Assembly: GCA_965219085.1 (NCBI GenBank) | Contig: OZ244720.1 | Location: 707,684-771,683, forward strand | DNA from: Dehalococcoidia bacterium | GTDB lineage: Bacteria; Chloroflexota; Dehalococcoidia; UBA2979 | Direction of reading: 5' to 3' | DNA: 64,000 bases | Notes under the pieces: model-generated | What the model saw: only the letters and a program-made list of their open reading frames with translations | Databases searched by the model: none | Told to the model about the DNA's origin: nothing | Part shown: positions 1 through 41,235 of the stretch, in pieces | Layout: each line of letters starts with the position of its first letter | Numbering within the stretch: the first letter of the stretch is position 1 | Program-made: the position numbers and the translations under genes

Positions 1-1
1 C

Positions 2-11691: not shown

Positions 11692-11711
11692 CCTCCCTCG
11701 TGCCCCCCGGC

Positions 11712-22988: not shown

Positions 22989-23606
22989 ATGAGGCGGCAA
23001 CCAGGAACAACAGCCGGTAGGGCGAGGCGGCTGAGGACGCTGGCGGCGGCGCTGCTGCTGGCGGCGCTCGCCACCATCCCCTCGAGCGGCGTCGCCCTCG
23101 CCCAGGAGCCGCCCGCGGAGGCCATCGTGCTCGTCAACGAGACCGCCGAGGATCTCGTCGAGCGCAAGGACGACGGACGCTTCATCGCACGCCCCGTCTT
23201 CGACCGCGAGGTCCCGCTCCTCTACTACGGCGTGCGCGACGGCGACACGGGCGATTGGCTCACCGTCGTCTTCCGGGTGCGCGACGACGGCGAGGAGCGG
23301 CGCGACGGCCGCGAGTACTCCTTCGAGTACCCCTTCGAGAACGGCCAGCCCGAACTCGACCCGGAGCGTCCCTACCTGCTGGTGATGCTCGCGGGCGAGC
23401 TGGCGGAGTCGCCGCAGCCCTTCTACGCCGTCATCCCGCCCCACCAGCCCGGCGGTCTCTGGAACAGGGTTCTCGGCGCGCTCGACCCCGAGCGCTGGGG
23501 CAAGGCCGTCGCCCGCTGGGTGATCGAGGGCGCGCACGGGACGCTCTGCGGCGTCGTGGAGCGCGCCTCAGGCGACGACACCGATGTCTGCGAGGTCGCC
23601 CCGTGA
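22989..23606 (+). CDS. Secreted hypothetical protein with a signal peptide (RRLRTLAAALLLAALA)
   Basis: ATG at 22989 is preceded by AAGGAGG. It has a hydrophobic N-terminus, and its stop overlaps the next start as GTGA. Confidence 0.6.
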   Translation: MRRQPGTTAGRARRLRTLAAALLLAALATIPSSGVALAQEPPAEAIVLVNETAEDLVERKDDGRFIARPVFDREVPLLYYGVRDGDTGDWLTVVFRVRDDGEERRDGREYSFEYPFENGQPELDPERPYLLVMLAGELAESPQPFYAVIPPHQPGGLWNRVLGALDPERWGKAVARWVIEGAHGTLCGVVERASGDDTDVCEVAP

Positions 23607-24589
23607 GCGACATCTTCACGGGCACGCCGCCCGGCCTCACCTACGACCACGAGATCGTCCGCCAGGCGTGGACGGCGGTCTGGATCATCACCTCCGGCGC
23701 GCTCGTCGTGATCATCGGCTGGATGGGGCTGAGCCTCATCATCGGCGACCACCTCGGCCGCGCGCAGGCGGGCTGGCGCGAGCTGGTCCCGCGCCTCGGG
23801 CTGGGACTCGTGGCCGCCGCCGCCTCGCTGTGGTGGTGCGCGCTCGTCATCGACGTGGCCGACGCCATCTCCGGCTTCATCGCCGCCGAGCTGGGCGTGA
23901 CCGCCGGCGACATGCTGCGCTCGACGCTGCGCACGCTGCTGACGGCGGTGGCGGCGGGCAGCGTGGGCATGGGCCTGCTGCTGGCCTTGCTCTACCTCGT
24001 CTACGGCTTCTTCGTGCTCTACCTCGTGGTGCAGATGGTGCTGCGCCTCGCGCTGATCGACATCCTGCTGGCGCTCGCGCCGATCGCCCTCGGGCTCTGG
24101 ATCCTCCCGCACACGGCGGGCTGGGGCCGGCACTGGCTGCGCCTCTTCATGACGACCGTCTTCCAGCAGGCGATCCAGCTGATCGCGCTGGCCCTCGGCA
24201 TCGGCTTCCTCAACGAGTACGCCGCGATCGGCGGCGGCGAGCCGATCCAGGACCTCGTCTGGAAGCTGCTGATGTCGCTGGCCTTCATCTACCTGGCGAC
24301 GCGCGTGCCCTCGCTGCTCGGCAACGTCGGGACCTTCGATGCCTGGCTGCACACCCTCCACTTCGGCATGTCCCTGCCCGGCTCGATGGCCCGCTCGGCG
24401 CGCTCCGTGGGGCTGCTGGTGGGCGGCGGCGCGGCGGGCGGCCCGGTGGGTGCGGCGGTTGCCGCCGGGGCCGCGGGCGGAGTGGCCTCGGCGGCGACCT
24501 CGGGCGTGCGCTCGGCGGCCGAGCTGGCGACCCCCTCTTCGGGCGGTGGCGCCGCTGGCGGCGGCGCGCCCAGGAGCAGCAGCGAGTAG
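23603..24589 (+). CDS. TrbL/VirB6-like polytopic membrane protein of a type IV secretion system
   Basis: It has six or more predicted TM helices and a Gly/Ala-rich C-terminal tail, and sits immediately upstream of the pilin and VirB4 genes. Confidence 0.55.
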   Translation: MSDIFTGTPPGLTYDHEIVRQAWTAVWIITSGALVVIIGWMGLSLIIGDHLGRAQAGWRELVPRLGLGLVAAAASLWWCALVIDVADAISGFIAAELGVTAGDMLRSTLRTLLTAVAAGSVGMGLLLALLYLVYGFFVLYLVVQMVLRLALIDILLALAPIALGLWILPHTAGWGRHWLRLFMTTVFQQAIQLIALALGIGFLNEYAAIGGGEPIQDLVWKLLMSLAFIYLATRVPSLLGNVGTFDAWLHTLHFGMSLPGSMARSARSVGLLVGGGAAGGPVGAAVAAGAAGGVASAATSGVRSAAELATPSSGGGAAGGGAPRSSSE

Positions 24590-24734
24590 CGACAACAACA
24601 ACCGCAACCAGGCAGCGCGGCCTCTTCGCGCCGATCGAGACGCAAACGGAGGTGGGAGATGTGCCGGTAGGCGAACGAGCAGCAGCACCGAGAGACGAAC
24701 GAGAACACGCAAACGCGAGAGGAGCGAAACACAA

Positions 24735-25028
24735 GTGGAAGACCTGACTCAGACCATCTCCAACCTGGTGGGCATCCTGCTCGGGGTCGTCGGCGCGATC
24801 GGCGTCGGCTTCTTCATCTACGGGTCCTACCTCTACCTCACCGCCTCGGGCGCACCGCACCAGATGGAGCGCGGCAAGAGCGCGATGATGACCGCTTTGG
24901 CCGGGATCGTCCTGGCGATGGTGGCCTTCGGCGTCGTCGAACTGGTGATGGACGCCGTCGTCAACCCCGTCGTGGATGTCGACGTCCCCGAGCCCACGGG
25001 CGCGACCACGACCACAGAGGGGGGATAG
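24735..25028 (+). CDS. VirB2/TrbC-like pilin (small two-TM protein)
   Basis: GTG at 24735. It is 97 aa with two hydrophobic helices (ILLGVVGAIGVGFFIYG... and MMTALAGIVLAMVAFGVV). Confidence 0.5.
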   Translation: MEDLTQTISNLVGILLGVVGAIGVGFFIYGSYLYLTASGAPHQMERGKSAMMTALAGIVLAMVAFGVVELVMDAVVNPVVDVDVPEPTGATTTTEGG

Positions 25029-25031
25029 GCC

Positions 25032-26789
25032 ATGCGAGAACACGAGGTTCCCACCCACGTGCAGGCCGAGGACCGCGTCCTGCTGTGGTTCACGTTTCCC
25101 CAGATCGTGGCGATGACGGCCGTCTGCGCCCTCGCCTACGGCGTCTACCGCTACGCCCCGTTCGGTCCTTCCGAGGTGCGCATGGCGCTGGCCGTGCTCT
25201 TCGGGCTGGCGGGGCTGGCGGTCGTCGCGGGGCGGATCGGCGGCAGGCGGCTGCCGCTCGTGGCGGCCGACCTGCTGCGGTACGGGCTGGGGGCGCGGCG
25301 CTACGCCGGGCCTCCGGCCGAGCTGGTGCGCAGCGAACAGCCCGCGCCGGCGCAGCCCGCCGAGCGGAATGCCGATCCCGTGCGGCTGCTGGCGCGGCGC
25401 GTGCTGCGCCGGACCCGCCGCGTGAGCCAGCGGCGCAAGGAGGGCGAGCGCCGCAACGGGCGCATGCCCTTCCGCCCCCACCGCCTCTTCGGCAAGCGCC
25501 GCCGCGGCGGCGAGGAGCCCGAGAGCGACAAGCGGGCAGCGACCCGGGAGGACCGGGAGCAGCGGCTCGGCTCGCAGCGGCGAGGCCGGCGCGGCTTCTG
25601 GAAGACCTTCCTGGCGGCGGCCGCGCTGGCGCTGGTCGTCCTCACCGCCCTGCCGCTCGCGGCGGCGCTCGCCCAGGAGCCCGGCGGGGAGGGCTGGAGC
25701 TCGGACGAGATCGAGTTCCAGCCCCCGCCGGAGGTTCCCGGGCGGCGGCTCTTCGTCGAGGAGCTGACCGTCGGCGGCGAGCGGGCCGAGGTCGTCCTGC
25801 GGGCGGCCACCGACCTGGACCTGCGGGTGCGGGCCTACGGCGGAGCCGAGGGGCGCTCGTCCCGCTACTACGCGCTGGCCTCGCTGGAGGCGGGCGAGCG
25901 CGTCCGCTACGACCTGCCCCTGCATGGCCCTTCCCCTTCGCTTGTCTTCTCCTGGCAGGACGAACTGGGGCAGGCCGGGGCCGTCAGCCTCGACGGTGAG
26001 CGGCTCCCCTGGCCGCTGCCCGCCGTCACGGGCGAGCTGTGCGTCCTGCGCGTCGTCTCGCTCGGCTGGACGCCGGGGGCCGTCGAGGGGGCGATCACCT
26101 CGGAGTGCGTGAGCACGACCGAGGAAGCGGTCGTCCTGCAGACGGTCACCGGGCACGCCGACGTGACCACGACGGCCCTGCTGGAAGGCGAGGTCGTTGC
26201 CGTCACCGGGACCATCACGGTCGGCGGAGACGGCTCTGAGACGAGCGTCACGTTTGTCACCGGCGGCAAGACCCGCTTCCGGCTCCCGGTCGCGGCGGGC
26301 GAGGCCGTCCACGCCCTCGCCATCGAGGCGGACCTGGAGGCGTCGCTGCGCATCGCTCTGCCGCCGCTCGTGGAGCTGACGCACTACCCGCGGCGCGTCG
26401 AGCAACTCACGGAGACGGCGGAGGTCAGCATCCCCGCCTTCGGCGACACCGTGACGGAGACGTTCGCGGTGCCCGGCGAGGACGGCGCCTTCACGGAGCA
26501 CAGCGTGACGGCCAGCTGCCACGTCCCCGCCTCGACCGTCCGCCAGGACGTCGTCTTCAGCGTCGTCCACGACGAGCGCGTCGAGGCCGCGGTCACGGAG
26601 CGGGCGCCGCTCGCGCGCAGCCGCGAAGAGGCCCTGGCGCTGGCATCGAGCATCCGGGCAGACGACGCCTACGTGGCGCTGGTCGTGCCGGAGCCCGAGC
26701 CCGAGCCGGACCCGGTCACGCAGACGCCCGCCGGAGACGGCGAGCTGCGGGGTCTCTTCGACCAGCTCGGCTGGGAGTGGGTCTGGTGA
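25032..26789 (+). CDS. Type IV secretion-associated membrane protein (PrgI/VirB3-like N-terminus plus a large extracytoplasmic domain)
   Basis: ATG at 25032. The N-terminus has two TM helices (LLWFTFPQIVAMTAVCALAYGVY). It lies between the pilin and VirB4 genes. Confidence 0.45.
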   Translation: MREHEVPTHVQAEDRVLLWFTFPQIVAMTAVCALAYGVYRYAPFGPSEVRMALAVLFGLAGLAVVAGRIGGRRLPLVAADLLRYGLGARRYAGPPAELVRSEQPAPAQPAERNADPVRLLARRVLRRTRRVSQRRKEGERRNGRMPFRPHRLFGKRRRGGEEPESDKRAATREDREQRLGSQRRGRRGFWKTFLAAAALALVVLTALPLAAALAQEPGGEGWSSDEIEFQPPPEVPGRRLFVEELTVGGERAEVVLRAATDLDLRVRAYGGAEGRSSRYYALASLEAGERVRYDLPLHGPSPSLVFSWQDELGQAGAVSLDGERLPWPLPAVTGELCVLRVVSLGWTPGAVEGAITSECVSTTEEAVVLQTVTGHADVTTTALLEGEVVAVTGTITVGGDGSETSVTFVTGGKTRFRLPVAAGEAVHALAIEADLEASLRIALPPLVELTHYPRRVEQLTETAEVSIPAFGDTVTETFAVPGEDGAFTEHSVTASCHVPASTVRQDVVFSVVHDERVEAAVTERAPLARSREEALALASSIRADDAYVALVVPEPEPEPDPVTQTPAGDGELRGLFDQLGWEWVW

Positions 26790-27103
26790 GGCGGCTCACG
26801 ACCGCCCTGCTCTTCGCCGGGGTCGCGCTGGTCACCACCGGCGCGGCCCCGGCCGAGGAGCTGGCAATGCTCAACGCCTTCGACGAGGCGCTGACGGCGA
26901 TGGCCTACGCCGCCGCCGGGGTCTGCGTCTTCGCCATCGTCTGGGCGGGCTTCCTGCTCATGGCCGACGGCGCCGACGAGCGCGGCGGCGGACGCGCGAA
27001 GAGCGCTGTCTTCCTCGCGGTGTTTGGGCTCGCCCTCGTGCTCTCGGCCAAGGGCGTGGCCGCGCTGCTGCGCCTGGGCGTCGTCCCGATCCCGATCCCC
27101 TAG
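26777..27103 (+). CDS. Small membrane protein of 108 aa
   Basis: GTG at 26777 overlaps the upstream stop. It has two hydrophobic helices. Confidence 0.45.
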   Translation: MGLVRRLTTALLFAGVALVTTGAAPAEELAMLNAFDEALTAMAYAAAGVCVFAIVWAGFLLMADGADERGGGRAKSAVFLAVFGLALVLSAKGVAALLRLGVVPIPIP

Positions 27104-27122
27104 CACCAAGGAGCACACCCCC

Positions 27123-29426
27123 ATGAGACCACTACTCGAACTCGCGAAGCGCGCGGCGGCGATCCTGCCCGGCGGGGCCGCCGCCCAACGGATCGAACCC
27201 GAGGCGGAGACCCCGGTGCCGAAGCCCCCGCCGGGGCTGCCGCTCGCCTTCATGCTCTCGCACCTGGAGGAGGACGGCCCGGTACGCCTCGACGGCGTGA
27301 AGCTCGGCGTCTGCGAGGTGCTGGGCCTCGAGCTGGACGAGCCGAAGCTGGGGGCCTTCGCGGGCGCGCTCAACGCCTGCGACTTCCCGTTGCAGCTGCT
27401 CGTGCGCCAGCACCCACCCGGGCTCGGGAAGCTGCGGGAGGATCTCGCGGAGTCACAGCCCGAGGACCTGCCCCCGCAGACGGAGGCCGCCGCGGACTCG
27501 CTGCGGCGACTGCTGGGCGAGCTGGAGCGCCGCGACGGCATCCTCGACCGCCGCTTCTACGCTGTCTGCGAGCACGAGCGGATAGGCGAGCTGCGGGGCC
27601 TGCTGGCGCGGGCCGGACTCTCCGTCCACCCGCTTGTGGGCCGCCAGTTGCGCATGCTGCTGCTCGCCTCGGCCCTCGGCGGCTCGCCGCGCGAGATCGA
27701 CGAAGACACGCCCACCGAGGTCACGGTCAACCGCCGCGACATCCGCGTCGGGGACCGCCTCGTGCGCTCGCTGCATCTCGGGAAGTGGCCGCGCTCCCTC
27801 TCGCCCGGCTTCCTCCAGAACCTGATGGCGACCGGCGCGCCGATGGACCTCTCCCTCCACCTCGGGCCGATCCCCGCCGCGCAGGCGGCGCGCACGCTGG
27901 AGTGGCAGAAGGTCCGCTTCGAGTCGGCGCAGAGCCTCTCCTTCAAGCGCGGGCGCTCGATGTCCTCGGAGGCGGAGATCGCCCTCGAGGACGTGATGCG
28001 GCTGCGCGACGAGGTGCAGCGCGGGCGCGAACGCCTCTTCCACGCCTCCCTCTCGGTCACGCTCCACGCCGATGACGAGGAGTCCCTGAAGGAGCTGACC
28101 CAGCGGGCCAAGGCCCACTTCGCGGCCTCCCTGGGGAAGCTGGACGCCCTTCCCTTCCGCCAGCGCGAGGGCCTGCTCGCGACGCTGCCGCTGGCGCTCA
28201 ACGCCGTCGCCGTCTGGCGCACGCTCGACACCTCGTCGCTGGCCCGTCTCTACCCCTTCTCCCCGCCCGACCTCGACACCCGTGGCGGCACGCTCTACGG
28301 CATCGACATGCGGGCGTCGTCGCCCGTCGTCTACGACCCCTGGGACGGCACGCACCTCAATGCCAACACCGCCGTGCTCGCGCGCTCGGGAAGCGGGAAA
28401 TCGTTCGCGACCAAGCTGGGCGTGCTGCGCGGGCTCTGCCGGGGCGTCACCGCCTACGTGATCGACCCCGAGGGCGAGTACGCGGACATGGCCCGCGCCG
28501 CGGGCGGACGCGTGCTCTCGCCGGGCGTCGCGGGCGAGGGCATGAACCCCTTCGTCATCGACTCGGGCGATCCCGAGGAGCTGCTGCTGCGCATCGGCAG
28601 CCTCAGGCGGCTGATCGAGGTGATGATCGGGGAGTCGCTCGGCGCCGAGCGGCGAGCCGCCCTCGACCACGCCCTCGCCGCCTACTACGCGCAGCCGCGC
28701 GAACGCACCGGCTTCCGCGACTTCTACGCGTTCCTCAAGGGCGACGAAGCCGATGGCGACCCCGGCCTTGCCAGGCTGCTGCGGCCCTTCGCCACGGGCA
28801 GCCTCCGCCACCTGCTCACCGACGAGGGCGACGACCTGCTCAAGAGCGAAGCGCTGGTGACGGTCTTCGACCTGCGGCTGCTGGAGCCGGAGCTGCGGCC
28901 GGCCGCAGCGATGGTCTGCACCGAGACGGTCTGGGCCGCCGCCGCGCGCGACCCGAAGCCGCGATTGCTGGTCGTCGACGAGGTCTGGTCGATCATGCAG
29001 CACCCCGAGGGCGCGGCCTTCATGGTCTCGCTGGCGAAGCGGGCGCGGAAGCACCGGCTGGGACTGCAGTTCATTACCCAGGACGTGCAGGACCTGCTCT
29101 CCGAGGACCCCTCGCGCGCGATCACCGGCCACTCGGGTCGCGCGCTGCTTCAGAACGCCGCCTTCAAGCTCCTCCTCCAGCAGGACGCCGCCGCCATCTC
29201 GACCGTCGGCGACGCCTTCGACCTCCCCCAGGACCTGCAGCGCTGGCTGCTGTCGTGTCCGCGCGGCGACGGGCTCCTCCTCGCCCGCGGCAACCGCTTC
29301 CCGATCCGCATCGAGGCGACGCCCGAGGAGGCGGAGCTGATCGAGTGGCGGCCCGGCTCGCACCGGCAGGGCAGCGCGACCCCAGCGCCGCAGGAGCCGG
29401 CCGTTCCCGAACCGGGCGACCGATAG
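27123..29426 (+). CDS. VirB4/TrbE-like conjugative ATPase
   Basis: ATG at 27123 is preceded by AAGGAG. Walker A is VLARSGSGKSF and Walker B is RLLVVDEVW. The protein is 767 aa. Confidence 0.8.
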   Translation: MRPLLELAKRAAAILPGGAAAQRIEPEAETPVPKPPPGLPLAFMLSHLEEDGPVRLDGVKLGVCEVLGLELDEPKLGAFAGALNACDFPLQLLVRQHPPGLGKLREDLAESQPEDLPPQTEAAADSLRRLLGELERRDGILDRRFYAVCEHERIGELRGLLARAGLSVHPLVGRQLRMLLLASALGGSPREIDEDTPTEVTVNRRDIRVGDRLVRSLHLGKWPRSLSPGFLQNLMATGAPMDLSLHLGPIPAAQAARTLEWQKVRFESAQSLSFKRGRSMSSEAEIALEDVMRLRDEVQRGRERLFHASLSVTLHADDEESLKELTQRAKAHFAASLGKLDALPFRQREGLLATLPLALNAVAVWRTLDTSSLARLYPFSPPDLDTRGGTLYGIDMRASSPVVYDPWDGTHLNANTAVLARSGSGKSFATKLGVLRGLCRGVTAYVIDPEGEYADMARAAGGRVLSPGVAGEGMNPFVIDSGDPEELLLRIGSLRRLIEVMIGESLGAERRAALDHALAAYYAQPRERTGFRDFYAFLKGDEADGDPGLARLLRPFATGSLRHLLTDEGDDLLKSEALVTVFDLRLLEPELRPAAAMVCTETVWAAAARDPKPRLLVVDEVWSIMQHPEGAAFMVSLAKRARKHRLGLQFITQDVQDLLSEDPSRAITGHSGRALLQNAAFKLLLQQDAAAISTVGDAFDLPQDLQRWLLSCPRGDGLLLARGNRFPIRIEATPEEAELIEWRPGSHRQGSATPAPQEPAVPEPGDR

Positions 29427-29509
29427 GGATGAGCAGGGAGGACGCAGCGATGACCAGCACGGCCCGGCCGTAACGCCAACCCGACCAACACACCGAGAGG
29501 AACACCAAG

Positions 29510-32089
29510 ATGAGACTCAACCCCTTCCGCAGAGCGACGCCCAGGCCGCCTGTCCTGCTGGCGGTGACGCCGCCGCGCTCGGGCGAGCGCACGCTGCTCG
29601 GCGTCGAGAACCTGCTCGCCTCGATCGCCGTCCCTGAACCCTTTGCCCTCGAGCTGGCCGGCGACGAGGACGGCGTCACGCTCATGGCGCGTTGCCTCGA
29701 CGAGCAGGTCGTGCGCGGCCAGATCGCCACCCACTACCCGCAGGCCCGCATCCAAGCGCTGGAGCCGGAACAGGATCCCCTGCGCCTCGCCGAGGGCGAG
29801 CAAGCCTGGGGCACGACCGTGCGCGCGAGCGGCCCCGAGTATGTCTCCCTGCGCGTCTTCCGCGACGACGACCTGCTCGACGCCGGCTCCGACCCGCTCC
29901 TCTCCCTGCTTGGCGCGCTCTCGTCGCTGCGGGAGGGCGAGCGCGTCGTCGCCCGCCTGCTGCTGCGCTCGCTCGGTCCCGACTGGTCCCAGGCCCACCA
30001 GCTCAAGGCCCACCAGCGGCCCGTGCAGGAGCCGCATGACAGCGCCTACACGAGCCAGGTCCGCCAGCACCGCAACGACGGCGTGGCGATGGCCGTCCTC
30101 GGCGCTGGCGCCATCGCCGCCATCAAGGGCTACCAGTGGTGGCAGGCTGGCGAGACCTGGAAGGCGGTCGCCCTCGGCGGCGGCATCGCCCTCACCCTCG
30201 CGGCCGCTGGCTGGGCCTGGGCGCGCTTCCAGCGCGCCCGCAACCGCATCCACGACCCGCTCCTGATCAAGGAGAAGGTCTCGCGCATCGCCTTCGACGC
30301 CGAAATCCAGATCGTCGCGATCCTGCCGGCGAAGAGCGCGAAGGACGGGAGGCGACGGGCGCGGGAGCTGCTCGAGCCGGTGGCGGCCGCCTACCGCCAC
30401 TACGACCACCCCGCGGGCGCCCGCCTGCGGGCCGGGAAGGTGCGGGCCGTGGCGCCCGACCCCGCCCTGCTGCACCCTTCCGGCCCCCGGCTGCTCGGCG
30501 GGCGCAGCGTGCTCGGCGTGCGCGAGGCGGCGGCCCTCTGGCATCCGCCCGGCGCGCGCGACGAGACGCCGCTCGTGGAGCGCTCCGGCGCCAGGGTGCT
30601 GCTGCCCTCCGCCCGGGGCGTCAGGGGCGGCGCGCACGTGGGCGACACCACCGCGGGCAATCCCCGGCCCGTGCACTTCCCCGACGACCTGCTGCGCCGC
30701 CATCACTTCTACGTGGCGCGTACGCGCATGGGCAAGTCGACGCTCATGCACCACCTCGTCGTCCACAAGCTCCGCGAGAAGGCGGCGGGCCGCGACGGTG
30801 ACGCGATCGTCGTCGTCGACCCACACGCCGACCTCGTGGGCGCCCTCCTCGGGCAGGTGCCCGAGTCGCTCGCCGGCCAGGTGCGCCTCGTCGACCTCGC
30901 CGCCCCGGGCGGCTACCCGGGCATCAACCTGCTCGACACGCGGGTTTTCGCCGACCGCGACCGCACCGCCGACTCGGTCGTGCGCGTGGCGAGGGGCCTC
31001 TGGGAGCAGTGGGGCCCGCGCATGCAGTCGATCCTCGAGCAGACCGTGAAGACCCTGCACGAGGCCAACGCCCACCCCGCCACCGCCGCCGACGAGCAGC
31101 ACACGATCCTCGACGGCCTGCCGCTGCTCTCCGACGACGGCTTCCGCGGACACGTCCTGGAGCGGGTCTCCGACCCCTTCCTGCTCGACTGGTGGGCGCG
31201 CGACTTCGGGGGCTGGCGACGCGAGTACCGCGCCGAAGCGCTCGCGCCCGTGCAGACGCGCCTCTCCTACTACGCCTCCTCGAAGCGGGCGCGCGCCATT
31301 CTCGGTCAGCCCCGCTCCACCATCGACCTCAGGCGCACGATCCTCGACGGCGGCATCCTCTTCGTCTCCACCGCGCAGGGCACGGCAGGGCGCGACGTCG
31401 CCGCCCTCGTGGGCGCGTCGATCCTCAACCTCGTCGACGCCGTCATCCGCGAGCAGGGTGACCTGCCGCCGGAACGGCGACGCGGCGCGCTCGTCGTCGT
31501 GGACGAGATGCAGTCGATGCCGGGCGTCGACTACGAGTCGATGCTCTCCGAGCTGGGCAAGTTCGGGGCCTCGTTCGTGCTCGCCACGCAGAGCCTCGAC
31601 AAGCTCGAGGACCTCTCACGCACGATGCGCAACACCCTGCTCGCCAACGTCGGCTGCCTCGCCGTCTTCCAGGTGGCCGGCTCCGACGCGCGCGAGCTCG
31701 TCTGGGAGCTGGACCGCGACCGCATCTCCGAGGAGGACATCGTCTCCCTGCCCGTGCACCACTGCTACGTGCGCGCCACCGTGGGAACGGAGCGCATGCC
31801 GGCCTTCTCGATGCAGGTCCTCAAGCCGGAGGAGGGCGACGCGGATGTCGCCGCGGGCATCCGCGCCGAGGCGTCCTCCTACCTCCTCACCGAGGAGGAG
31901 ATCGCCGCCGGCCAGGCGGAGGGCCGCAGGCGCGTGGAGGAGTACCGCAAGGGCGTCGAGGCGCTCCGCGCCGGCGAGGCTCCCCCGGCAGCGCAGGGCG
32001 ACGGCGCGTCGGTGGACCCCGTGCGCGGGAAGCCGCGCAGCAAGCACTTCCAGCCGCCCGCCGGGGGCTCCGGGGAGGATGAGGCGTGA
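29510..32089 (+). CDS. Type IV coupling protein (VirD4/TraD-like)
   Basis: ATG at 29510. It has an N-terminal TM pair, Walker A YVARTRMGKST and Walker B ALVVVDEMQS. The protein is 859 aa. Confidence 0.75.
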   Translation: MRLNPFRRATPRPPVLLAVTPPRSGERTLLGVENLLASIAVPEPFALELAGDEDGVTLMARCLDEQVVRGQIATHYPQARIQALEPEQDPLRLAEGEQAWGTTVRASGPEYVSLRVFRDDDLLDAGSDPLLSLLGALSSLREGERVVARLLLRSLGPDWSQAHQLKAHQRPVQEPHDSAYTSQVRQHRNDGVAMAVLGAGAIAAIKGYQWWQAGETWKAVALGGGIALTLAAAGWAWARFQRARNRIHDPLLIKEKVSRIAFDAEIQIVAILPAKSAKDGRRRARELLEPVAAAYRHYDHPAGARLRAGKVRAVAPDPALLHPSGPRLLGGRSVLGVREAAALWHPPGARDETPLVERSGARVLLPSARGVRGGAHVGDTTAGNPRPVHFPDDLLRRHHFYVARTRMGKSTLMHHLVVHKLREKAAGRDGDAIVVVDPHADLVGALLGQVPESLAGQVRLVDLAAPGGYPGINLLDTRVFADRDRTADSVVRVARGLWEQWGPRMQSILEQTVKTLHEANAHPATAADEQHTILDGLPLLSDDGFRGHVLERVSDPFLLDWWARDFGGWRREYRAEALAPVQTRLSYYASSKRARAILGQPRSTIDLRRTILDGGILFVSTAQGTAGRDVAALVGASILNLVDAVIREQGDLPPERRRGALVVVDEMQSMPGVDYESMLSELGKFGASFVLATQSLDKLEDLSRTMRNTLLANVGCLAVFQVAGSDARELVWELDRDRISEEDIVSLPVHHCYVRATVGTERMPAFSMQVLKPEEGDADVAAGIRAEASSYLLTEEEIAAGQAEGRRRVEEYRKGVEALRAGEAPPAAQGDGASVDPVRGKPRSKHFQPPAGGSGEDEA

Positions 32090-33759
32090 GGCCCGAGCGC
32101 GACCTGCCGCGGCTGCTCGCGGCCATGCCTTTCCTCGACCGGCTGGAGCTGGTCGCCGTCTCCGGCTGGTCTCGGGGCGCGGTCTACGGGAGCATCCGGG
32201 CGCTGGAGGAGGCGGGGCTCGTGGCCTCCCTCCCCCACGCCTCGGAGCTCGTTGCCCCGACGCGCCGCTACGCCCTCACTGCGGCCGGCCTGCGCCGCCT
32301 CGCCGCCGAGGAGCGCGTGGGCATGCACGAGTTACTGCGCTCGCGGCCCCTCTCGGCGCATGGGCGGCGCATCCTGCTGGAGCGGCTCGACGCCGTCGCC
32401 GTCATCTACCGGCTCGCCTCCGAGATCGCCAACCTCCACTACCCGATCCGCTTCCGCTGGTACCGGGCGATGCCGATGGACGCCGCCATCGCCCTCCCGG
32501 ACGGCCGCACCGTCGCCGTCGTGCGACAGGGGCATACCGCCGATCGCACAGCCTACGCCAAGCGGCTCTGGCGGCTGCGCGAGGGGCCGCGGCCGGGCGC
32601 GTTCCTGCTGCTCGCACCCGATGAGGTGCGCCTCCGGCACACGCGCCGGCTGATGACGGGAGCGCCCGCGCCCGCCTTCCTCGCCCTGGAGCGCGATGCG
32701 ATCTCGTCAGGGCCGGGCGCCCGCATCTGGCGCACGGCGTCCGGCTCGCCCCTCCTTGGGCTCGGCGAGGTCCTGTCCCACGTCGCGGCGCGCGGCGCGT
32801 GGCCCGAGGAACAACCGCCCGCTCTGGCCTCGTTCCCGCGCGACCTGCCTGCCGATCCCCCGGGGTCCCCTGCCGACTGGATGCTCCCCGCGCTGCTCAA
32901 GCCCACCGAGAAGCGCGTCCTCGACTTGCTCTGCGACTGGCCGTGGATCACGCCCGCGCACCTCGGCGTCCTGCTCGGGCTCGGACGGTCGCGGCTCTCC
33001 GCGATCGTGCAGCGGTTGGAGGCGATGGGCCTGCTGGTCGACTCCGCTGTCGCCGGCCGCCGCCGGCTCGGCCTCAGCGACCGCGGGCTGGCGGTGCTCT
33101 CCCGGCGTGACCGCGCGTCTGTGGGCGACGCTAGAAAGCGCTGGAGCATCGCACCCCTCGATCCCGGCGCCGCCGGCTGGCGCAACGTCTCCGGCCGGCG
33201 CAGCCGCCAGCTCCTGCGCAACATCGAGCACACCGCGTCCGTGCACGCCTTCATCTCGGCGCTGGCCGAGCAGGCGCGGGCTTCCAGCTGGGAGGTCGGC
33301 GAGCTCGACCCTCCGCGCCGCGCCTCGCGGTACTTCCCCTACGACGACCGGCTGCACTCCATCCAGCCCGATGCCTTTGGGATGCTGCACCGCGGCGACG
33401 AGATTTGGCCCTTCTTCCTCGAGTGGGAGCGGCGCGCCGTGCACCCGGCCACGATGGCGGCCCGCCTCGCCCCCTACCTGCGCTACTACGCCTCCCACCG
33501 GCCCACCGACGACCACGGCGCCCGGCCGGCTGTCCTCGTCGTCTTCGACGACGAGCTCGCGGCGAACCACTTCCTGCGCGTGGCGCAGGGGGAGCTAGAG
33601 CGCGCGAGGGTCGCGGTGCCGCTGCGAGTCTCGTTCGAGCGGCTCCTGCGGGCAGAGGGGCCGCTGGGACGTGCCTGGCGCGTTCCGGGCGCGCCTCATC
33701 AACAGGCGGGGCCGCTCTCCGGCCACGCCGTCGCCTCCAGTGGGGATTCCGGGCGCTGA
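32086..33759 (+). CDS. Replication-relaxation family protein (putative relaxase or mobilisation protein with a winged-helix N-terminus)
   Basis: GTG at 32086 overlaps the coupling-protein stop (GTGA). The N-terminal winged-helix-like segment is LDRLELVAVSGWSRGAVYGSIRALEEAGLV. The gene sits directly after the coupling-protein gene. Confidence 0.5.
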   Translation: MRPERDLPRLLAAMPFLDRLELVAVSGWSRGAVYGSIRALEEAGLVASLPHASELVAPTRRYALTAAGLRRLAAEERVGMHELLRSRPLSAHGRRILLERLDAVAVIYRLASEIANLHYPIRFRWYRAMPMDAAIALPDGRTVAVVRQGHTADRTAYAKRLWRLREGPRPGAFLLLAPDEVRLRHTRRLMTGAPAPAFLALERDAISSGPGARIWRTASGSPLLGLGEVLSHVAARGAWPEEQPPALASFPRDLPADPPGSPADWMLPALLKPTEKRVLDLLCDWPWITPAHLGVLLGLGRSRLSAIVQRLEAMGLLVDSAVAGRRRLGLSDRGLAVLSRRDRASVGDARKRWSIAPLDPGAAGWRNVSGRRSRQLLRNIEHTASVHAFISALAEQARASSWEVGELDPPRRASRYFPYDDRLHSIQPDAFGMLHRGDEIWPFFLEWERRAVHPATMAARLAPYLRYYASHRPTDDHGARPAVLVVFDDELAANHFLRVAQGELERARVAVPLRVSFERLLRAEGPLGRAWRVPGAPHQQAGPLSGHAVASSGDSGR

Positions 33760-33835
33760 GGGCGGCGCGCCGTACGCTGGCCGCTGTTGGGGTCACCCGG
33801 CAGGCGGCGGGGACAGGCGCTCCCGCAATGGGACG

Positions 33836-34291
33836 CTACGCGACCGCCCGACCCGCCTCCAGGCGCTCTGCGCAGGTGGGACACACGGCGGTACTGGGCT
33901 CCCCGGCCGCCGGCAGCAGGTGATGCAGCAGCCCCAGCTCGAGGGCGAGATTGAACAGCGCGACCAAGTGCCCCTGGTCCGGTCTCGTGCCCGACCGCCA
34001 GCGCCGCACGCAGCGGGCGTTCAGGCGCAGCCGCCGCGCAAGCCCCCGCCACGACAGCCCGGCCGCCTGCAGGAAGCGCTCCAGCCGCTGCGGGAAGTCC
34101 GGCGGGAAGGGCGATGGCTCCACATGGTAGACCCACTGCTGTTGCCGACCCACGTTCACGCCGTCCCACCGCCGGAGCCAGCCGCCTCGGCATCGAGAAC
34201 GGCCAGCGTCAGCCGCATCATGGTGCACATGCCGCCTTCCGTCAGGCCCGGCCGCGGGGCCGCCTCCTCCAGCCGCTCCTCGAACGCGCAC
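33836..34291 (-). CDS. Small HTH protein, paralog of the 34419-34721 gene; start uncertain
   Basis: The HTH is FPQRLERFLQAAGLSWRGLARRLRLNARCVRRWRSG, similar to the neighbouring gene. A true start near 34132 (VYHVEPSPFPP) is possible. Confidence 0.4.
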   Translation of the reverse strand: MRVRGAAGGGGPAAGPDGRRHVHHDAADAGRSRCRGGWLRRWDGVNVGRQQQWVYHVEPSPFPPDFPQRLERFLQAAGLSWRGLARRLRLNARCVRRWRSGTRPDQGHLVALFNLALELGLLHHLLPAAGEPSTAVCPTCAERLEAGRAVA

Positions 34292-34418
34292 AGCTCGATC
34301 GCGAACTCGTCGGGCGAAGCGTCAGCGAGCTCGTCCATTCGCCGCACCCACGCACCAAGTTCCTCCGGGAAGGGCGGCGCGCGGAAGTCCGCGCTCCGAT
34401 CTCGACGTTCCACGGTTC

Positions 34419-34721
34419 CTATCTCCCCCGTCGGTATACGACGGTCACGTCCTCGCCCGTCAGGGCCGCGAGGCCCCCGGGCACGCGCATCGCCAGCCGC
34501 ACCAGCGAGAGCATCGCCCCGCCGTTGGGGGCCGCCCCCTGACGCCAGCGCAGCAGCTGGCGGCTGTCCACCCCCAGCGCCACGGCCAGCCCCTCCCAGG
34601 AGAGCCCTGTCAGCTCCTTCAGCGCCGTCAGCCGCTCGACGAAGTCCTCGGGGACCAGGGCGACGCCCGGCGGAAACGACGCGACGGCCGCGGGACCTCC
34701 GCTAGACATCGGTCCGCTCAA
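34419..34721 (-). CDS. Small HTH protein of 100 aa
   Basis: The HTH is FVERLTALKELTGLSWEGLAVALGVDSRQLLRWRQG. Confidence 0.5.
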   Translation of the reverse strand: MSGPMSSGGPAAVASFPPGVALVPEDFVERLTALKELTGLSWEGLAVALGVDSRQLLRWRQGAAPNGGAMLSLVRLAMRVPGGLAALTGEDVTVVYRRGR

Positions 34722-34944
34722 GGAAGAACAGTTCGTCGAACTCGGCGATCCCGAGCTCCGCCATGAGGCGCGCCCGCACCTTCGCCGAGGGGCTCCGCCT
34801 GCCGCTCATCAGCTGCGACAGGTAGCCAGGGTTGATGCCGACGCGCCGCGCCAACTCGGTCTGGGTCATGTTGTGGCGGGCGAGGTGCTCCCACACGACC
34901 TCGGGCCTGAGCCTCACCCGCAGCGACGGCTGCCTGCGCTTCAT
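34702..34944 (-). CDS. XRE-family HTH transcriptional regulator of 80 aa
   Basis: ATG at 34944. The HTH is MTQTELARRVGINPGYLSQLMSGRRSPS. Confidence 0.65.
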   Translation of the reverse strand: MKRRQPSLRVRLRPEVVWEHLARHNMTQTELARRVGINPGYLSQLMSGRRSPSAKVRARLMAELGIAEFDELFFLERTDV

Positions 34945-35421
34945 GCCGCGTCGTCCCTCCGCGGCGGCTCGCTGCCGGCTCGAGTGTCGCAGCCGGACGT
35001 GGGCGGTTGCCCCGCCGCGCCGTCTCCGTAACCGTCGGGGTGGGCGAGGGCGTGGCGCGCGATGATGCGGGCCAGTGCCCGCAGGCCCTCGAGGCGCATT
35101 CGCTCCTGTTCGTCGGTCAGCCGCTGCTTCGTACTCACGCTTGGGTCCCACTGAACAACTCGCTGCCGGCACCGCGCGGGGTGACAGGCTTGTGAACCAC
35201 GGGTGTACACTCGGATAGTACATCCGTTCGTTTCACGAGAGATTAGCGATTCTCGGGCGCCGAGGCAACAGTTCTGTGACCGATCCGGCCTTTTTGCAAG
35301 GAATTGCTTGCTCCGATGTCACAACGATGTAGCTGGGACGCGGCAGGCGACCTCGATCACGCTAAGGTGAACACGCAGATGAGGAGAAGGAGGCGAGGCT
35401 AACGCATCGCGGGACCCTGGA

Positions 35422-35570
35422 GTGCAGTGCGCGATCTTGGACGGGCTGCCCATGCTCTCAGAGCCCGCGTTCCGGAAGGGGGTGCTGCGCGGCGCGCGCC
35501 TCTTGGACCCGCCAGCAATCAGGCCGACGCCTTGGCACCCGTCCAGACCCGCCTCGCCTATCTCGGGATG
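35422..35570 (+). pseudogene. Decayed remnant of a coupling-protein (VirD4/TraD) gene
   Basis: The translated fragments AILDGLPMLSEPAFRKGVLRGARLLD and ADALAPVQTRLAYL (in a second frame) align to residues TILDGLPLLSDDGFRGHVLERVSDPFLLD...AEALAPVQTRLSYY of the intact coupling protein at 31090-31270. Confidence 0.6.
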
Positions 35571-36497
35571 GGGCGGGCGGCCCCGCGCTCGCCGCGTCAT
35601 GGGGTAAGCCTAGAACCCCGCGCCGCGATTTTCCCTACCCGGCATCCCTCTGACTGAACACGGCGATCTCCAGTTGGCGGGGTTTCGAGTCGGCGGCAGC
35701 CCGAAGCGCTTGGCGCGCCTGAATCTGCCGAACAGGCGCTTGACCGACCCGCAGCCCGGAACACGGGCTGACACCGAAGCACTTGCGGCATGTAGCTGGC
35801 AGCCCCCGACGCCCAGAATTCCCCTTGCGCGGCCTTGCTCCCGCGCGAACGCCCCGCGCTCGAGGTGGGGCGCGGGAGGAGTAGCGGTTGCGGTCGCTAC
35901 AGCTAGCGACACCTGAGTGGCGACTGGCTCGGGTGTCCGGTGCGCTGTGACGGTCGGAGGCTGACGCCTCCTGACTCGGGGCCGAGACTGTGGTCTCGCC
36001 GCCGCAGGCCGTCGCCAGTAACACCAGCGAGCAGGCGAGCCCCGGCAAGAACGATCGGCTCCCCGCATGATGGCCCACCTCCGGGTGCCCGGTCTTAGAG
36101 ACCGGGCGGCACATCGCACTGCGTGTCAAGGACCATACCGTGGACGCGTTGCACCGGGGAGAGAGTTCACCGAAGAAGCACCAGCAATGTCCGCGATGTC
36201 ACACCACGTTCACTTCCAAAATGTATATCGTAACTGGCGGGTAACTCAGTTCGGGCGGCGTGAGTTCGACAGGCCGATCGCCGGGCCGGAGAAGCGGTGT
36301 GGGATCACCGGAATCCAAGAGCGGGTGCGCGGCAGACGGGCTACTCAGAGATGGTCCCGGCCCGGACCACGTCGTGGCGACGCTCGACAAGCGGGATGCC
36401 CTCGACGGGCTGGACGTGCTGCCGGGCTTCTCCTGCGCGGTGAGCGCCGTCGTTGGCGCCCGTTCCGTCCCGGAGCGCTCTGGACACGAGCGAACGC

Positions 36498-37040
36498 ATG
36501 ACCGCGGACGCGACTGATCCGCAACTGGCGAGTCAGGGCCGACGCCTCGCCGGGGCCGTGCTCGACGGCCTGCTGTTCGTCCTCACCCTCGGTATCGGCT
36601 GGGTCATCTGGTACCTGTTCACGGCGCGCGGTGGGCAGAGCCCGGCGAAGCGGCTGCTGGGCATGCGCGTCATCCTCGATGACGGCGCGGTAGCCAGCCG
36701 GAGCTGGATGCTCATCCGCGATCTGGCAGTGCGCGTCATTGCCTTCGGCGCGGTCAACCGGGTGCTGGTCGCGGTGCTCGGTGCGGACGCGGGCGGTGCC
36801 ATCTACGGGCTCGTCTTCGTCGTGGCGGCGCTGTGGTGCGTGTGGGACGCGGACCGCCAGTGCCTCTGGGACAAGATCGTGCGGACGCGCGTCGTGTACG
36901 GCCTGCGCGCCCCCGCCAGCGCCTCAGCGGGCCGCCGCAGGATCCTGCCCGACCTCCGCACTCGCTGGGATCCTCTCGACGCTTCGGCGTACACTTGTTC
37001 TGAGAGCGTACGGAACCTCGCCGATCCTGTAGGCGAGTAG
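36498..37040 (+). CDS. RDD-family membrane protein
   Basis: It has RRLAGAVLDGLLF...GQSPAKRLLGMRV and three TM helices. Confidence 0.6.
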   Translation: MTADATDPQLASQGRRLAGAVLDGLLFVLTLGIGWVIWYLFTARGGQSPAKRLLGMRVILDDGAVASRSWMLIRDLAVRVIAFGAVNRVLVAVLGADAGGAIYGLVFVVAALWCVWDADRQCLWDKIVRTRVVYGLRAPASASAGRRRILPDLRTRWDPLDASAYTCSESVRNLADPVGE

Positions 37041-37088
37041 CGCGGCAGGGCGGTGCCAGTCCGGCCGCGAGCCAGGGAGCACGAACCG

Positions 37089-38702
37089 ATGAACGACCGA
37101 CCCGACCCCACGCCGGCAGCGCTTTATGCCCGCGTCTCCAGCGACCGCCAGGACGTCGACCTCTCCGTCTCAGCCCAACTCCGGGCGCTGCGCGACTACG
37201 CCGAGAAGAACAACTACCTCGTCGTCCGCGAGTACGTCGATGAGGCCGAGAGCGGGCGCGTCGCCGACAGGCCCCAGTTCCAGAAGATGCTCGACGAGGC
37301 CAGCGGCGCGGACGCCCCCTTCCGTGAGATCCTCGTCTGGAAGTTCTCGCGCTTCACCCGCAAGCGCGAGCATGCCGTCGCCTTCAAGTCGATGCTGCGC
37401 CGCCGCGGCGTCCGCGTCGTCTCCATCACCGAGCACGCCGACGACACGCCCACCGGCAAGCTCATGGAGGCGATCATCGAGAGCGTCGACGAGTTCTACA
37501 GCGAGAACCTGGCACAGGAGGTCATGCGCGGCCTGCGCGAGTCGGCCTCTCGCGGATTCTGGGTCGCTCCCCGCGCTCCGTACGGCTACCGCAGGGTGCA
37601 GGTCCAGGACGGCCCGAGGACCCGACCGAAGCTGGAGCTGAATCCGCCCGCTGACGGCATGGTCCGCCGCATCTTCGAGATGGCGCTGCAAGACCGGAGC
37701 GTCCTCGACATCAGCAAGACCCTCAACGCCGAGGGCATCCCGAGTCCCGCAGGCAAGCGCTGGAACAAGACGACCATCCACCAGATGCTCGCCAACGAGA
37801 CCTACACGGGGACCCTGCTCTGGGGCGTCACCGCCAAGGACGGGCTGCCACCCGTGCGCGTGGACGACGCCTTCCCGGCCATCGTTTCCCGGGAGGAGTT
37901 CCGGCAGGTCGCGGCGCTGCTGCGCGCGAGGGCGCCCGCGCAGGTCCACCCCCGGCGCGCCGGTAGCCCCTACCTGCTGAGCGGGCTGGTCAAGTGCCAT
38001 CGGTGCCGCAGGGCGCTCACGGCCGCCGAGGCCAAGAGCGGCAAGTACACCTACTACGTCTGCCAGTCGTTGCTGAAGCGGGGCAGCGGCACGTGCGAGA
38101 CGCCGCGCCTCAACGCGAAGCGCTTCGAGCAGCTGATCATCGACCAGATCCGGGAGCACGTCCTCACCGAGTCCAACATCCGCGACCTCGTGCGGCTCGT
38201 CGATGAGGAGATGGACGGAGTGGCCCGCGAGGAGCGGGCGAAGCTCGAGAGCATCGAGGCGGAGCTGGCCGAGGTGCGCCGCCGGATGGACCGGCTGTGG
38301 CACGCCGTCGAGACCTCCGACCTTGAGGTGAACGACATCCTGCCCCGCATCAGGCAGCACCAGGAGCGCCAGGGACGCCTCGAGGCGGCGGCCCAGGATG
38401 CCCGCACGGCGCTGTCGGAGCGTCGCGTGGTGCTGGACAGCGTGGAGACCATCGCCGCCTTCGCCCGGGAGATGAGCGAGTTCCTGAGGACGAGCGACCT
38501 GACCGAGTCGAAGGCCTTCATCCGCTCCTTCGTGAAGGAGATCGCGGTGAAGCCCGGGACGGCGACGATCCGCTACACGATCCCGACGCCTCCCGACAGC
38601 ACAATCGGCGGTCGAGATGCCGCGGAGGTTGAGTTGCCCGAGGCAGTTCGCAGTACAGTCCAGTATGGCTGGGGACCAGGGATTCGAACCCCGACCTACT
38701 GA
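37089..38702 (+). CDS. Large serine recombinase (integrase)
   Basis: ATG at 37089. The resolvase-type N-terminus is AALYARVSSDRQD with the catalytic Ser. A recombinase domain, the zinc ribbon CHRCRR...YYVC and a coiled coil follow. The last 37 nt overlap tRNA-Gln. Confidence 0.85.
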   Translation: MNDRPDPTPAALYARVSSDRQDVDLSVSAQLRALRDYAEKNNYLVVREYVDEAESGRVADRPQFQKMLDEASGADAPFREILVWKFSRFTRKREHAVAFKSMLRRRGVRVVSITEHADDTPTGKLMEAIIESVDEFYSENLAQEVMRGLRESASRGFWVAPRAPYGYRRVQVQDGPRTRPKLELNPPADGMVRRIFEMALQDRSVLDISKTLNAEGIPSPAGKRWNKTTIHQMLANETYTGTLLWGVTAKDGLPPVRVDDAFPAIVSREEFRQVAALLRARAPAQVHPRRAGSPYLLSGLVKCHRCRRALTAAEAKSGKYTYYVCQSLLKRGSGTCETPRLNAKRFEQLIIDQIREHVLTESNIRDLVRLVDEEMDGVAREERAKLESIEAELAEVRRRMDRLWHAVETSDLEVNDILPRIRQHQERQGRLEAAAQDARTALSERRVVLDSVETIAAFAREMSEFLRTSDLTESKAFIRSFVKEIAVKPGTATIRYTIPTPPDSTIGGRDAAEVELPEAVRSTVQYGWGPGIRTPTY

Positions 38703-38739
38703 TCCAGAGTCAGCTGTCCTACCATTAGACTAGTCCCCA
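38666..38739 (-). tRNA. tRNA-Gln (anticodon CTG)
   Basis: A manual cloverleaf fold gives acceptor UGGGGAC/GUCCCCA, D-arm GUCU/GGAC, anticodon stem GCUGA/UCAGU with loop CUCUGGA, T-arm CGGGG-UUCGAAU-CCCUG, discriminator G, and an encoded CCA. Total length is 74 nt. Confidence 0.8.
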
Positions 38740-41222: not shown

Positions 41223-41235
41223 CAGGCGCCTCGCG

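Follow-up and report, generated by a model that had tools for sequence, protein, structure and literature searches.

The sequence analysed here (the window) comprises 64,000 nt of contig OZ244720.1 from a Dehalococcoidia bacterium (assembly GCA_965219085.1; forward strand, positions 707,684-771,683), with a G+C content of ~70%. It contains a set of conjugation genes, followed on the same strand by the gene for a large serine recombinase that runs into a tRNA-Gln(CTG) gene on the opposite strand. We consider it likely that the first 38.7 kb of the window form the right-hand part of an integrative conjugative element (ICE), which belongs to a family widespread in Dehalococcoidia and was inserted by this recombinase at the tip of the tRNA-Gln gene. 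tRNA genes were called with ARAGORN and protein families were assigned with Pfam and NCBIfam. Genes were delimited by GC-frame analysis and a codon-usage gene caller, and flanks were compared by blastn. The features around the conjugation genes, the recombinase gene and the adjoining host DNA are listed below, in positions of the window.

22989-23606, plus strand: 205-aa protein with no family match
23603-24589, plus strand: TrbL/VirB6 (Pfam)
24735-25028, plus strand: type IV secretion system (T4SS) pilin-like protein (Pfam; NCBIfam agrees, below its cut-off)
25032-26789, plus strand: 585-aa protein with no family match
26777-27103, plus strand: small protein of 108 aa in the VirB3/PrgI position (sub-threshold pilin/TrbC matches only)
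27024-29426, plus strand: VirB4-type conjugation ATPase (Pfam P-loop_TraG, AAA_10 and TraC_F_IV, above cut-offs)
29510-32089, plus strand: type IV coupling protein (Pfam TrwB_AAD_bind, 28.1 bits against a cut-off of 20.5)
32086-33759, plus strand: relaxase candidate, Replic_Relax with a MarR-type winged helix (PF13814, 39 bits against a cut-off of 25.3)
34419-35223, minus strand: small regulator genes, including one for a Cro/CI-type HTH_3 protein (Pfam)
36453-37040, plus strand: RDD-family membrane protein, directly 5' of the recombinase gene (Pfam)
37089-38702 (alternative start 37053), plus strand: large serine recombinase (Pfam Resolvase, Recombinase, Zn_ribbon_recom)
38646-38660, plus strand: putative P arm of the element's attachment site attP, GTTCGCAGTACAGTC, inside the 3' end of the recombinase gene
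38661-38665, plus strand: spacer of 5 nt, CAGTA, inside the 3' end of the recombinase gene
38666-38671, plus strand: putative core TGGCTG, antisense of CCA, G73 and acceptor bases 72-71 (from the divergence bound and site symmetry)
38666-38739, minus strand: intact host tRNA-Gln(CTG) (ARAGORN)
38776-41760, minus strand: host flank with gltX, rluD and lspA (Pfam; synteny with L081-L088 and L092)

An earlier note on this DNA, made from the letters alone, had described a TrbL, pilin, VirB4, coupling-protein and relaxase-like gene set, and Pfam supports each member, the relaxase as a candidate. The gene called 'PrgI-like' in that note fits by position, since it lies at 26777-27103 just upstream of VirB4, but its family matches stay below threshold. 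VirB4 itself matched the NCBIfam model for CD1110-family VirB4 with E=6e-70, below the model cut-off. In combining a CD1110-family VirB4, VirB6/TrbL, an Mbov_0395-like pilin and a coupling protein in one operon, the locus resembles ICEs with a Gram-positive-type T4SS (FA/FATA class), namely the Tn916, CTn1 and ICESt3 lineages and the Mycoplasma ICEs. It differs from them in that all NCBIfam matches fall below the cut-offs, in a Replic_Relax protein in place of a MOBT or MOBP relaxase, in its Chloroflexota host, and in its integrase and target. To our knowledge, conjugation has barely been described in Chloroflexota, and here a full conjugation machinery is carried in a member of that group.

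We then compared the locus with its relatives. A scan of one genome per species returned at least 575 related loci, of which 80 were retrieved. Their sources are all metagenome-assembled genomes of Dehalococcoidia, Tepidiformaceae or Chloroflexota, and a single chromosome has up to three copies (three in OZ241919.1). Every locus was anchored on the last conserved codon of the recombinase, and junction counts refer to 80 entries, namely the window and 79 related loci, the truncated L005 being left out. Within 10 kb upstream of the recombinase, the relaxase candidate was found in 54 of the 80 loci, the coupling protein in 35 and VirB4, at the edge of the flank, in 11. Of the 80, 54 and 62 have homologues of the small helix-turn-helix (HTH) regulators shortly before the recombinase gene. 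A complete T4SS block, collinear with that of the window at 68-93% amino-acid identity, was present in L049.

Relatives free of the element, nine loci with the lspA-rluD-gltX-tRNA-Gln synteny, were reached through homologues of the window's GltX. Of these, L081-L088 encode a GltX ~90% identical to that of the window and share with it the order tRNA-Glu, malic enzyme and lspA-rluD-gltX-tRNA-Gln at 81-87% nucleotide identity. They contain no recombinase or conjugation genes at the tRNA-Gln site. The housekeeping genes that the earlier note had placed beyond the tRNA were recovered on the minus strand at 38776-41760. The blastn similarity to the window ended at 38666 for L081 and at 38663 for L082, that is, at the encoded CCA, and the tRNA-Gln of L082 is identical to that of the window over 74/74 nt; the other element-free relatives have 1-3 mismatches. 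In L092, by comparison, the same tRNA-Gln/gltX site is occupied by an element with a 90%-identical recombinase and an identical junction sequence, next to a host flank that is ~90% identical. The site is occupied in the window and in L092 and lacks an element in L081-L088; it is therefore polymorphic among close relatives, as expected of a mobile element. The comparison with genomes lacking the insertion, which the earlier note had proposed as a check, thus yielded empty sites and a right junction at the CCA. Its reading of the locus as an ICE inserted at tRNA-Gln gains support from these empty relatives of the same synteny, and from the linkage of the recombinase to the relaxase candidate and the coupling protein across the family.

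The L092 element has a coupling protein and a relaxase candidate, with no TrbL-VirB4 operon next to them, and may be a mobilizable derivative. At 1-10000 of that locus, ParA-like and SLFN_AlbA_2 genes stand in place of the TrbL-VirB4 operon. In L081-L088 the trailer of tRNA-Gln is a hot spot, with differing small islands in the first 2-6 kb (GmrSD, SieB, AAA_21 with SLT_3, or DUF2806 with SLT_3); no integrase gene was called beside tRNA-Gln in these islands. Past the islands, the relatives share a conserved flank encoding F420H2_quin_red, MFS, PAC2, a TRI12-type MFS, VTT, an Fe-S biosynthesis protein and RecQ. None of the downstream proteins of L081 and L082, members of this flank included, had a match in the window.

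It could be argued that the element is a fixed relic, an old insertion at the tRNA that is no longer mobile, and decay is indeed seen in the family. In L049, VirB4 is frameshifted and the coupling protein truncated; T4SS genes are missing from L092, L023 and L036, and insertion sequence (IS) elements are found in L007. The shorter, T4SS-less or decayed members comprise L023, L036, L045, L058 and L007. In the window, however, the conjugation open reading frames (ORFs) and the recombinase gene are all full length with a strong coding signal, and the recombinase keeps its N-terminal ...ALYARVSSDRQD motif. Moreover, site occupancy differs among close relatives and several copies occur per genome. 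We consider a relic unlikely, and the element may still be mobile.

The recombinase is 537-549 aa long, depending on the start, and shows the Resolvase (PF00239, E=8e-33), Recombinase (PF07508, E=7e-20) and Zn_ribbon_recom (PF13408, E=2e-12) domains, in agreement with the serine recombinase named in the earlier note. The nearest NCBIfam model is CcrB (E=7.5e-39, below cut-off), and relatives in the PDB are SPbeta SprA/YokA and the A118 integrase. A database protein of 537 aa, P0001, is 100% identical to it. Look-ups by exact sequence of P0001, of the recombinase and of the window's GltX returned no record. Homologues number in the thousands, and the best 120 are all at least 72% identical. The conserved part ends at 38660 and the stop codon, TGA, lies at 38700-38702; the last 14 codons (QYGWGPGIRTPTY and the stop) are a read-through of the spacer and of the antisense strand of the host tRNA. 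The overlap between the recombinase gene and the tRNA that had been noted before is exact: 38666-38702 is the antisense of the 3' half of tRNA-Gln(CTG), 37 nt in length. Homologues agree up to '...RSTV' and then carry varied tails, such as GWGPGIRTPTY, GCRAGIRTPTKG and TPGRTRTRDPLLRRQPLYPSELQ. These divergent tails are translated antisense T-arms of tRNAs (GIRTP, for example). The position of the stop codon shifts with the tRNA, while the junction is fixed relative to the CCA instead.

This regularity was apparent across the family. The triplet TGG, the antisense of an encoded CCA, starts 5 nt past the last conserved recombinase codon (the triplet lies 6-8 nt downstream) in 77 of the 80 entries, and a complete minus-strand tRNA begins at that CCA in 47. 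Nine isotypes are represented: Ile (11), Val (7), Arg (6), Met (6), Ala (6), Gln (5), Lys (3), Leu (2) and Glu (1). At six further junctions we found tRNA-like fragments that had not been called, with the T-loop box at the same index. An encoded CCA is also present in 26 of 28 non-target tRNA genes in the related loci. Insertion in this family, with its at least 575 loci and several copies per genome, is thus regular to the single nucleotide and falls at the CCA/acceptor tip of many tRNAs.

Pairs of loci with nearly identical recombinases indicated where element and host DNA meet. Between L012, at tRNA-Ile, and L016, at tRNA-Ala, the recombinase 3' ends (600 nt) and the spacers match at 100%, and the two sequences part after TGGTGG. 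The recombinase 3' ends of L050 and L053 also match at 100%, with divergence after 11 nt. About 40 further pairs with 3' ends at least 93% identical behave alike, diverging 6-12 nt from the start of TGG. In 47 of 48 adjacent tRNAs, the 3' acceptor strand on the recombinase side pairs 7/7 with the 5' strand of the same tRNA. Identical recombinases beside different, perfectly paired tRNAs are incompatible with an element-borne tRNA segment of 37 nt, or even of 20 nt. The body of the tRNA is therefore host DNA, and the element may supply no more than 4-6 nt of it (CCA, the discriminator base and 1-2 acceptor bases).

The P arm and the spacer have the same position and length in all 80 entries. 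Among the 32 junctions without a called tRNA, 21 share the form P(15 nt, GTT...)-N5-TGGT-gg-GCC(T/G)-N5-P'(15 nt, ...AAC), and so constitute attP-like 50-bp sites with imperfect inverted arms. The right arm is non-coding in 7 of the 21 (class A); in the other 14, a second recombinase gene, convergent with the first, contains it in its 3' end. Isolated P' arms, preceded by (T/A)GGTGGGCCT, were seen in L036, L037, L048 and L061. In L007, the P arm and spacer recur 10 kb upstream as an exact inverted copy of 20 nt, which bounds a small element of ~10 kb. The region 1433-11580 of that locus encodes RCC1-repeat and He_PIG Ig-domain surface proteins, an IS110 transposase and a PLD nuclease, and no conjugation genes. 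We had considered the class A tails as an inserted IS1380-type element and rejected this, as no inverted terminal copy was found within 4 kb and the sequence is an inverted copy of the P arm; the transposase gene of L007 is merely near the class A tail. An unfiltered tblastx comparison of the window with the class A flanks yielded uninformative noise on this GC-rich DNA.

The divergence points place the predicted crossover within the first 6 nt from the encoded CCA, at 38666-38671. The symmetry centre of the sites falls at nt 5-6 from the T of TGG, which corresponds to tRNA positions 72-71 and lies inside the 6-nt bound. From this symmetry, the exact crossover dinucleotide could be the TG at 38670-38671, a placement to which we give an even chance; in that case the element would contribute TGGC only, that is, CCA and G73. 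The corresponding cores differ by target, being TGGTgg at Ile, Met, Lys, Val and Ala, TGGTac at Arg and Leu, TGGTag at Glu and TGGCtg at Gln tRNAs. The T-loop box TCGAA stands at index 19 in 46 of the 47 tRNA junctions, against ~25 for the P' box, and is thus 6 nt nearer the centre. A motif nearer the centre in the half-site of the bacterial attachment site (attB) than in that of attP is usual for large serine integrases, as known from work on the A118 integrase. The GTTCG of the P arm, in turn, resembles the GTTCGA of the T-loop. The 50-bp attP with inverted arms and the more central attB motif are features of the family, drawn from 21 and 47 junctions respectively, and not of the window's own attP.

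Taken together, these observations suggest a route of integration. Through the recombinase, the host's tRNA-Gln(CTG) gene would receive the element at its 3' tip, and the tRNA would stay intact. The attP would be a symmetric site of ~50 bp, P(15)-N5-TGGN-xx-NNNN-N5-P'(15), with outer GTTCG/CGAAC-like boxes that mimic the T-loop box. As its P arm would lie inside the 3' end of the recombinase gene, the reading frame after integration would run into the antisense tRNA as far as a chance stop, and this read-through would give the protein a C-terminal tail dependent on the integration site. If only the tRNA-side half of attB were specific, the enzyme could use many tRNA targets and re-use occupied sites, and arrays would follow. 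We propose this one-sided half-site arrangement tentatively, at slightly less than even confidence, from the sequence comparisons described above.

tRNA genes are classic landing sites of tyrosine integrases, and the known large serine integrases have protein-coding or intergenic targets with two specific half-sites. The recombinases described here might be the first clear large serine integrases to specify ordinary tRNA genes, with the T-loop box and the acceptor/CCA tip serving as one attB half-site and any trailer tolerated as the other; we hold this, too, to be a possibility a little short of even. If true, the half-site reading would explain how near-identical enzymes come to lie at several isotypes, as well as the tandem and head-on arrays. 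The C-terminus of the recombinase would then change with the state of integration, a possible built-in switch. Should the model hold, it would also describe a natural serine integrase with a modular, partly generic target, relevant to the engineering of new landing sites, and a mechanism for the accretion of islands at tRNA genes of Dehalococcoidia, including sponge- and subsurface-associated lineages.

Arrays are frequent in the family. In 14 loci (L011, L014, L019, L025, L028, L033, L039, L040, L055, L059, L064, L065, L066 and L070) the recombinase gene is joined by another full-length serine recombinase gene, tail-to-tail with it at ~11.6-13.2 kb. This second recombinase is 43-65%, mostly 53-60%, identical to the first in amino-acid sequence and belongs to an inverted element that encodes a relaxase candidate or coupling protein of its own; where the 3' ends of the two genes meet, they make up a single attP-like site of 50 bp. 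In L077 a second recombinase gene starts 9.6 kb downstream. The trailer side of attB is not conserved, and an occupied site (P arm-core-tRNA) should therefore still serve as a target. A second element of the same type that entered such a site would produce a class A junction, and an element of the second recombinase type, with a core of opposite polarity, would produce head-on pairs. The tail-to-tail pairs may thus have arisen at one tRNA by head-on accretion. Inversion between two attR sites was considered as another origin of these pairs and rejected, by inference, in favour of sequential insertion, since recombination between inverted sites would be prevented by an asymmetric central dinucleotide.

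To the left of the conjugation operon lie a block of minus-strand genes (11712-22756), divergent from the T4SS operon according to GC-frame analysis and the codon-usage gene caller, and a giant gene that reaches the window start.

1-11227, plus strand: 3' 11.2 kb of a giant repeat-protein gene (Pfam: 12 Cadherin-like and 5 fn3 domains)
11562-11577 and 11642-11657: two copies of GCATACATGGACGTGC, a direct repeat of 16 nt (gcatacatggacgtgc)
11659-11693: GC-rich hairpin, downstream of the methylase-helicase gene
11712-15539, minus strand: DNA methyltransferase (DUF6094/N6_Mtase) fused to an SNF2-type helicase (ResIII/Helicase_C; Pfam)
15874-16371, minus strand: RadC-like JAB-domain protein (Pfam, E=5e-35)
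17024-17476 and 17569-17961, minus strand: two SSB genes (Pfam SSB)
18155-19252, minus strand: Rad52/22-family single-strand annealing protein (Pfam, E=1e-25)
19077-20126, minus strand: DnaG-type primase with CHC2 zinc finger and Toprim (Pfam)
20123-20884, 20712-21215 and 21791-22756, minus strand: three ORFs with no Pfam family above cut-off (coding potential)

The minus-strand genes from 11.7 to 22.8 kb encode functions typical of conjugative elements. Homologues of the methylase-helicase lie within 10 kb of the recombinase in L015, L023, L036, L045 and L058, and the ORF at 21791-22756, which diverges from the T4SS operon, has a homologue in 16 related loci. The SSB pair is a recent tandem duplication, with a 300-nt direct repeat of 94% identity at 17076-17375 and 17615-17914. 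The giant gene encodes at least 3730 aa, its frame being open up to the window start, and is probably element cargo or an adhesin. In L049, homologues of the last ~500 aa of its product adjoin the T4SS operon on the upstream side; in L055, they precede the relaxase candidate of the inverted element. The giant gene shows no synteny with element-free relatives. A unit of ~192 nt that encodes the C-terminal domain of the giant protein occurs at 10745-10936 and 11033-11224, and again in a small gene on the host side of the tRNA, at 51684-51875, with 78% identity.

The earlier note had suggested 11.2-11.7 kb as a possible left boundary of the element, with a 17-bp direct repeat at 11563 and 11643. 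A repeat does exist there; it measures 16 nt and starts at 11562 and 11642, one base from the coordinates given. However, the repeat and hairpin are kept just past the stop codon of the methylase-helicase gene in L023, L036 and L028. Because it is conserved at the same place relative to this gene in other genomes, the repeat is internal, and the motif at 11562-11693 is probably a terminator or regulatory element and not an att site.

If the element nonetheless ended at ~11.2-11.7 kb, the giant adhesin-like gene would be host DNA or part of an earlier, distinct island at the hot spot. This would suit the 485-bp intergenic gap between convergent gene ends at 11228-11711, the variability of the tRNA-Gln trailer with its different small islands in relatives, and the accretion at occupied sites that is common in the family. 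A 13-nt match to the trailer of L084/L085 at 11223-11235 points the same way but is not significant (E=0.31). Against this, the gap holds no P'-arm-like sequence and no TGGCTG core at the expected spacing, other genomes have the repeat motif inside their elements, element-type genes occupy 11.7-22.8 kb, homologues of the giant gene adjoin conjugation genes in L049 and L055, and the window lacks the conserved host flank (F420H2_quin_red, PAC2, MFS, RecQ). An end in this region is doubtful, and the boundary as proposed is wrong or at best unproven. Candidates for the left attachment site, attL, at 11525 (TGGCTGTCCGGCAGGGTTTCGGG) and 11229 were dropped for want of a P'-like arm at the needed spacing. 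With homologues of the giant gene near conjugation genes and the host flank missing, the ICE, or an array including it, likely extends past the left end of the window, and would thus exceed 38.7 kb.

Several results weigh against an ICE of this extent and origin. Only attR was found, and the element is not delimited in the window. No attL was detected in the window with the 37-nt tRNA half or trailer-like B arms from the empty sites, with the class A/class B P' arms or the tail of L001, with a position-weight matrix of 78 P arms run on both strands, or with a spacing-constrained TGGC..GAAC pattern. The assignment of the giant gene to the element depends on two relatives, L049 and L055, and its similarity lies partly in a C-terminal domain that is also present in the host-side gene at 51684-51875. 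Within the conjugation genes, the relaxase candidate (32086-33759) matched no canonical MOB relaxase family and no NCBIfam model, the T4SS operon includes two ORFs without a family match, and no cell-wall hydrolase was recognised. No attP-like junction of the Gln-targeting lineage was recovered in one metagenome scan for the P arm and TGGCT, which returned three short contigs with one tRNA-Gln(TTG) junction and two identical, uninterpretable tails (metagenome matches L089 and L091). The tail of L001 was also uninterpretable, and the relatives are metagenome-assembled genomes throughout.

Least tenable of the alternatives is the origin of the tRNA end put forward in the earlier note, namely that the element provides it: a crossover inside the tRNA (anticodon stem/T-arm), with the 3' 37 nt that complete tRNA-Gln carried by the element, is highly improbable, for although the ORF overlap equals exactly those 37 nt, and this half is identical in occupied and empty loci (which fits either origin), identical recombinases adjoin different tRNA 3' halves that each pair with their own 5' acceptor strand, the junction follows the CCA of many tRNAs and not the stop codon, similarity to the element-free relatives stops at the CCA, and no displaced fragment is present in the window. 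The window has a single copy of the 37-mer, at 38666-38702 (0 expected by chance), and no second one was found there with up to 3 mismatches allowed. An element-borne tRNA 3' fragment is how classical tyrosine-integrase tRNA-gene (tDNA) islands work. A recombinase ORF that overlaps a tRNA gene should not, in annotation, be equated with an element that rebuilds the tRNA.

Returning to insertion by a serine recombinase at the tRNA tip, the closest precedent appears to be the DsiB/ssrA islands of Dehalococcoides, a likeness that rests on the published description of DsiB. DsiB (GenBank ACZ62382) is a CcrB-like serine recombinase of 540 aa at the island edge, converging on the 3' end of ssrA (tmRNA) (PMC3146451). 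Its ORF overlaps the att site, and the ssrA islands form tandem arrays by accretion (PMC3146451, McMurdie et al., 2011). These islands have a 20-bp direct repeat, with the crossover inferred to lie mid T-loop, and were judged to be mobilizable only (PMC3146451). The window shares with them the class of host, a CcrB-like recombinase at the edge, an ORF that overlaps the att site, a stop codon that depends on context, and tandem arrays in the family. In contrast, the targets here are ordinary tRNA genes of at least nine isotypes and not ssrA, the shared core measures ~6-10 nt, and the crossover would lie at acceptor positions 71-72; no 20-bp direct repeat like that in the ssrA islands was found in the window. 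T4SS genes, a coupling protein and a relaxase candidate are carried, unlike in the ssrA islands, and an RDD protein and HTH regulators take the place of a neighbouring DsiA, RecF-like, ParB or Mom module. No second resolvase domain was found in the window. By analogy, then, the present system would be a tRNA-targeting and conjugative counterpart.

Two other groups of elements invite comparison. With CcrA/CcrB of SCCmec, phiC31, Bxb1, A118 and SprA, the recombinase shares the order Resolvase, Recombinase and zinc ribbon, a predicted attP of ~50 bp, and insertion at the 3' end of a conserved gene; it differs from those large serine integrases in its proposed single specific half-site, the tRNA acceptor/T-arm, with the trailer half not conserved. 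Islander-type tDNA islands of tyrosine integrases likewise insert on the 3' side of a tRNA gene, keep the tRNA functional and form hot spots with tandem islands. They differ in their recombinase superfamily and in a long direct repeat of a tRNA fragment, which is absent here, at most 4-6 nt being element-borne. Serine integrases with a specificity for tRNA genes are not known (PMC4383910). We found no earlier description of a tRNA-targeting serine-integrase family in a full-text search of an incomplete literature collection.

Some features of the host side of the window were recorded in addition. A tRNA-Glu(TTC) gene is located at 47272-47347, 8.5 kb away from tRNA-Gln and in opposite orientation to it. 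The same layout is kept in L081-L083 and L092, and is therefore not a product of the insertion. A 250-nt direct repeat with 97% identity occurs at 51123-51372 and 58329-58578, 7.2 kb apart, and flanks a region with two repeat-rich ORFs (54534-56303 and 56300-58345; internal repeats of ~297 nt). At ~59915-60307 (ORF 59955-60305) we detected a fragment with 74% protein identity to the C-terminus of the IS1380/DDE_Tnp_1_4-type transposase of L007, located at the start of a stretch of lower G+C (60-63 kb, 61-66%). Two parts of the low-G+C region, 62196-62683 and 62892-63986, are densely packed with tandem repeats (periods 24/48 nt and 129 nt) inside long minus-strand ORFs at 61263-62972 and 62969-63985.

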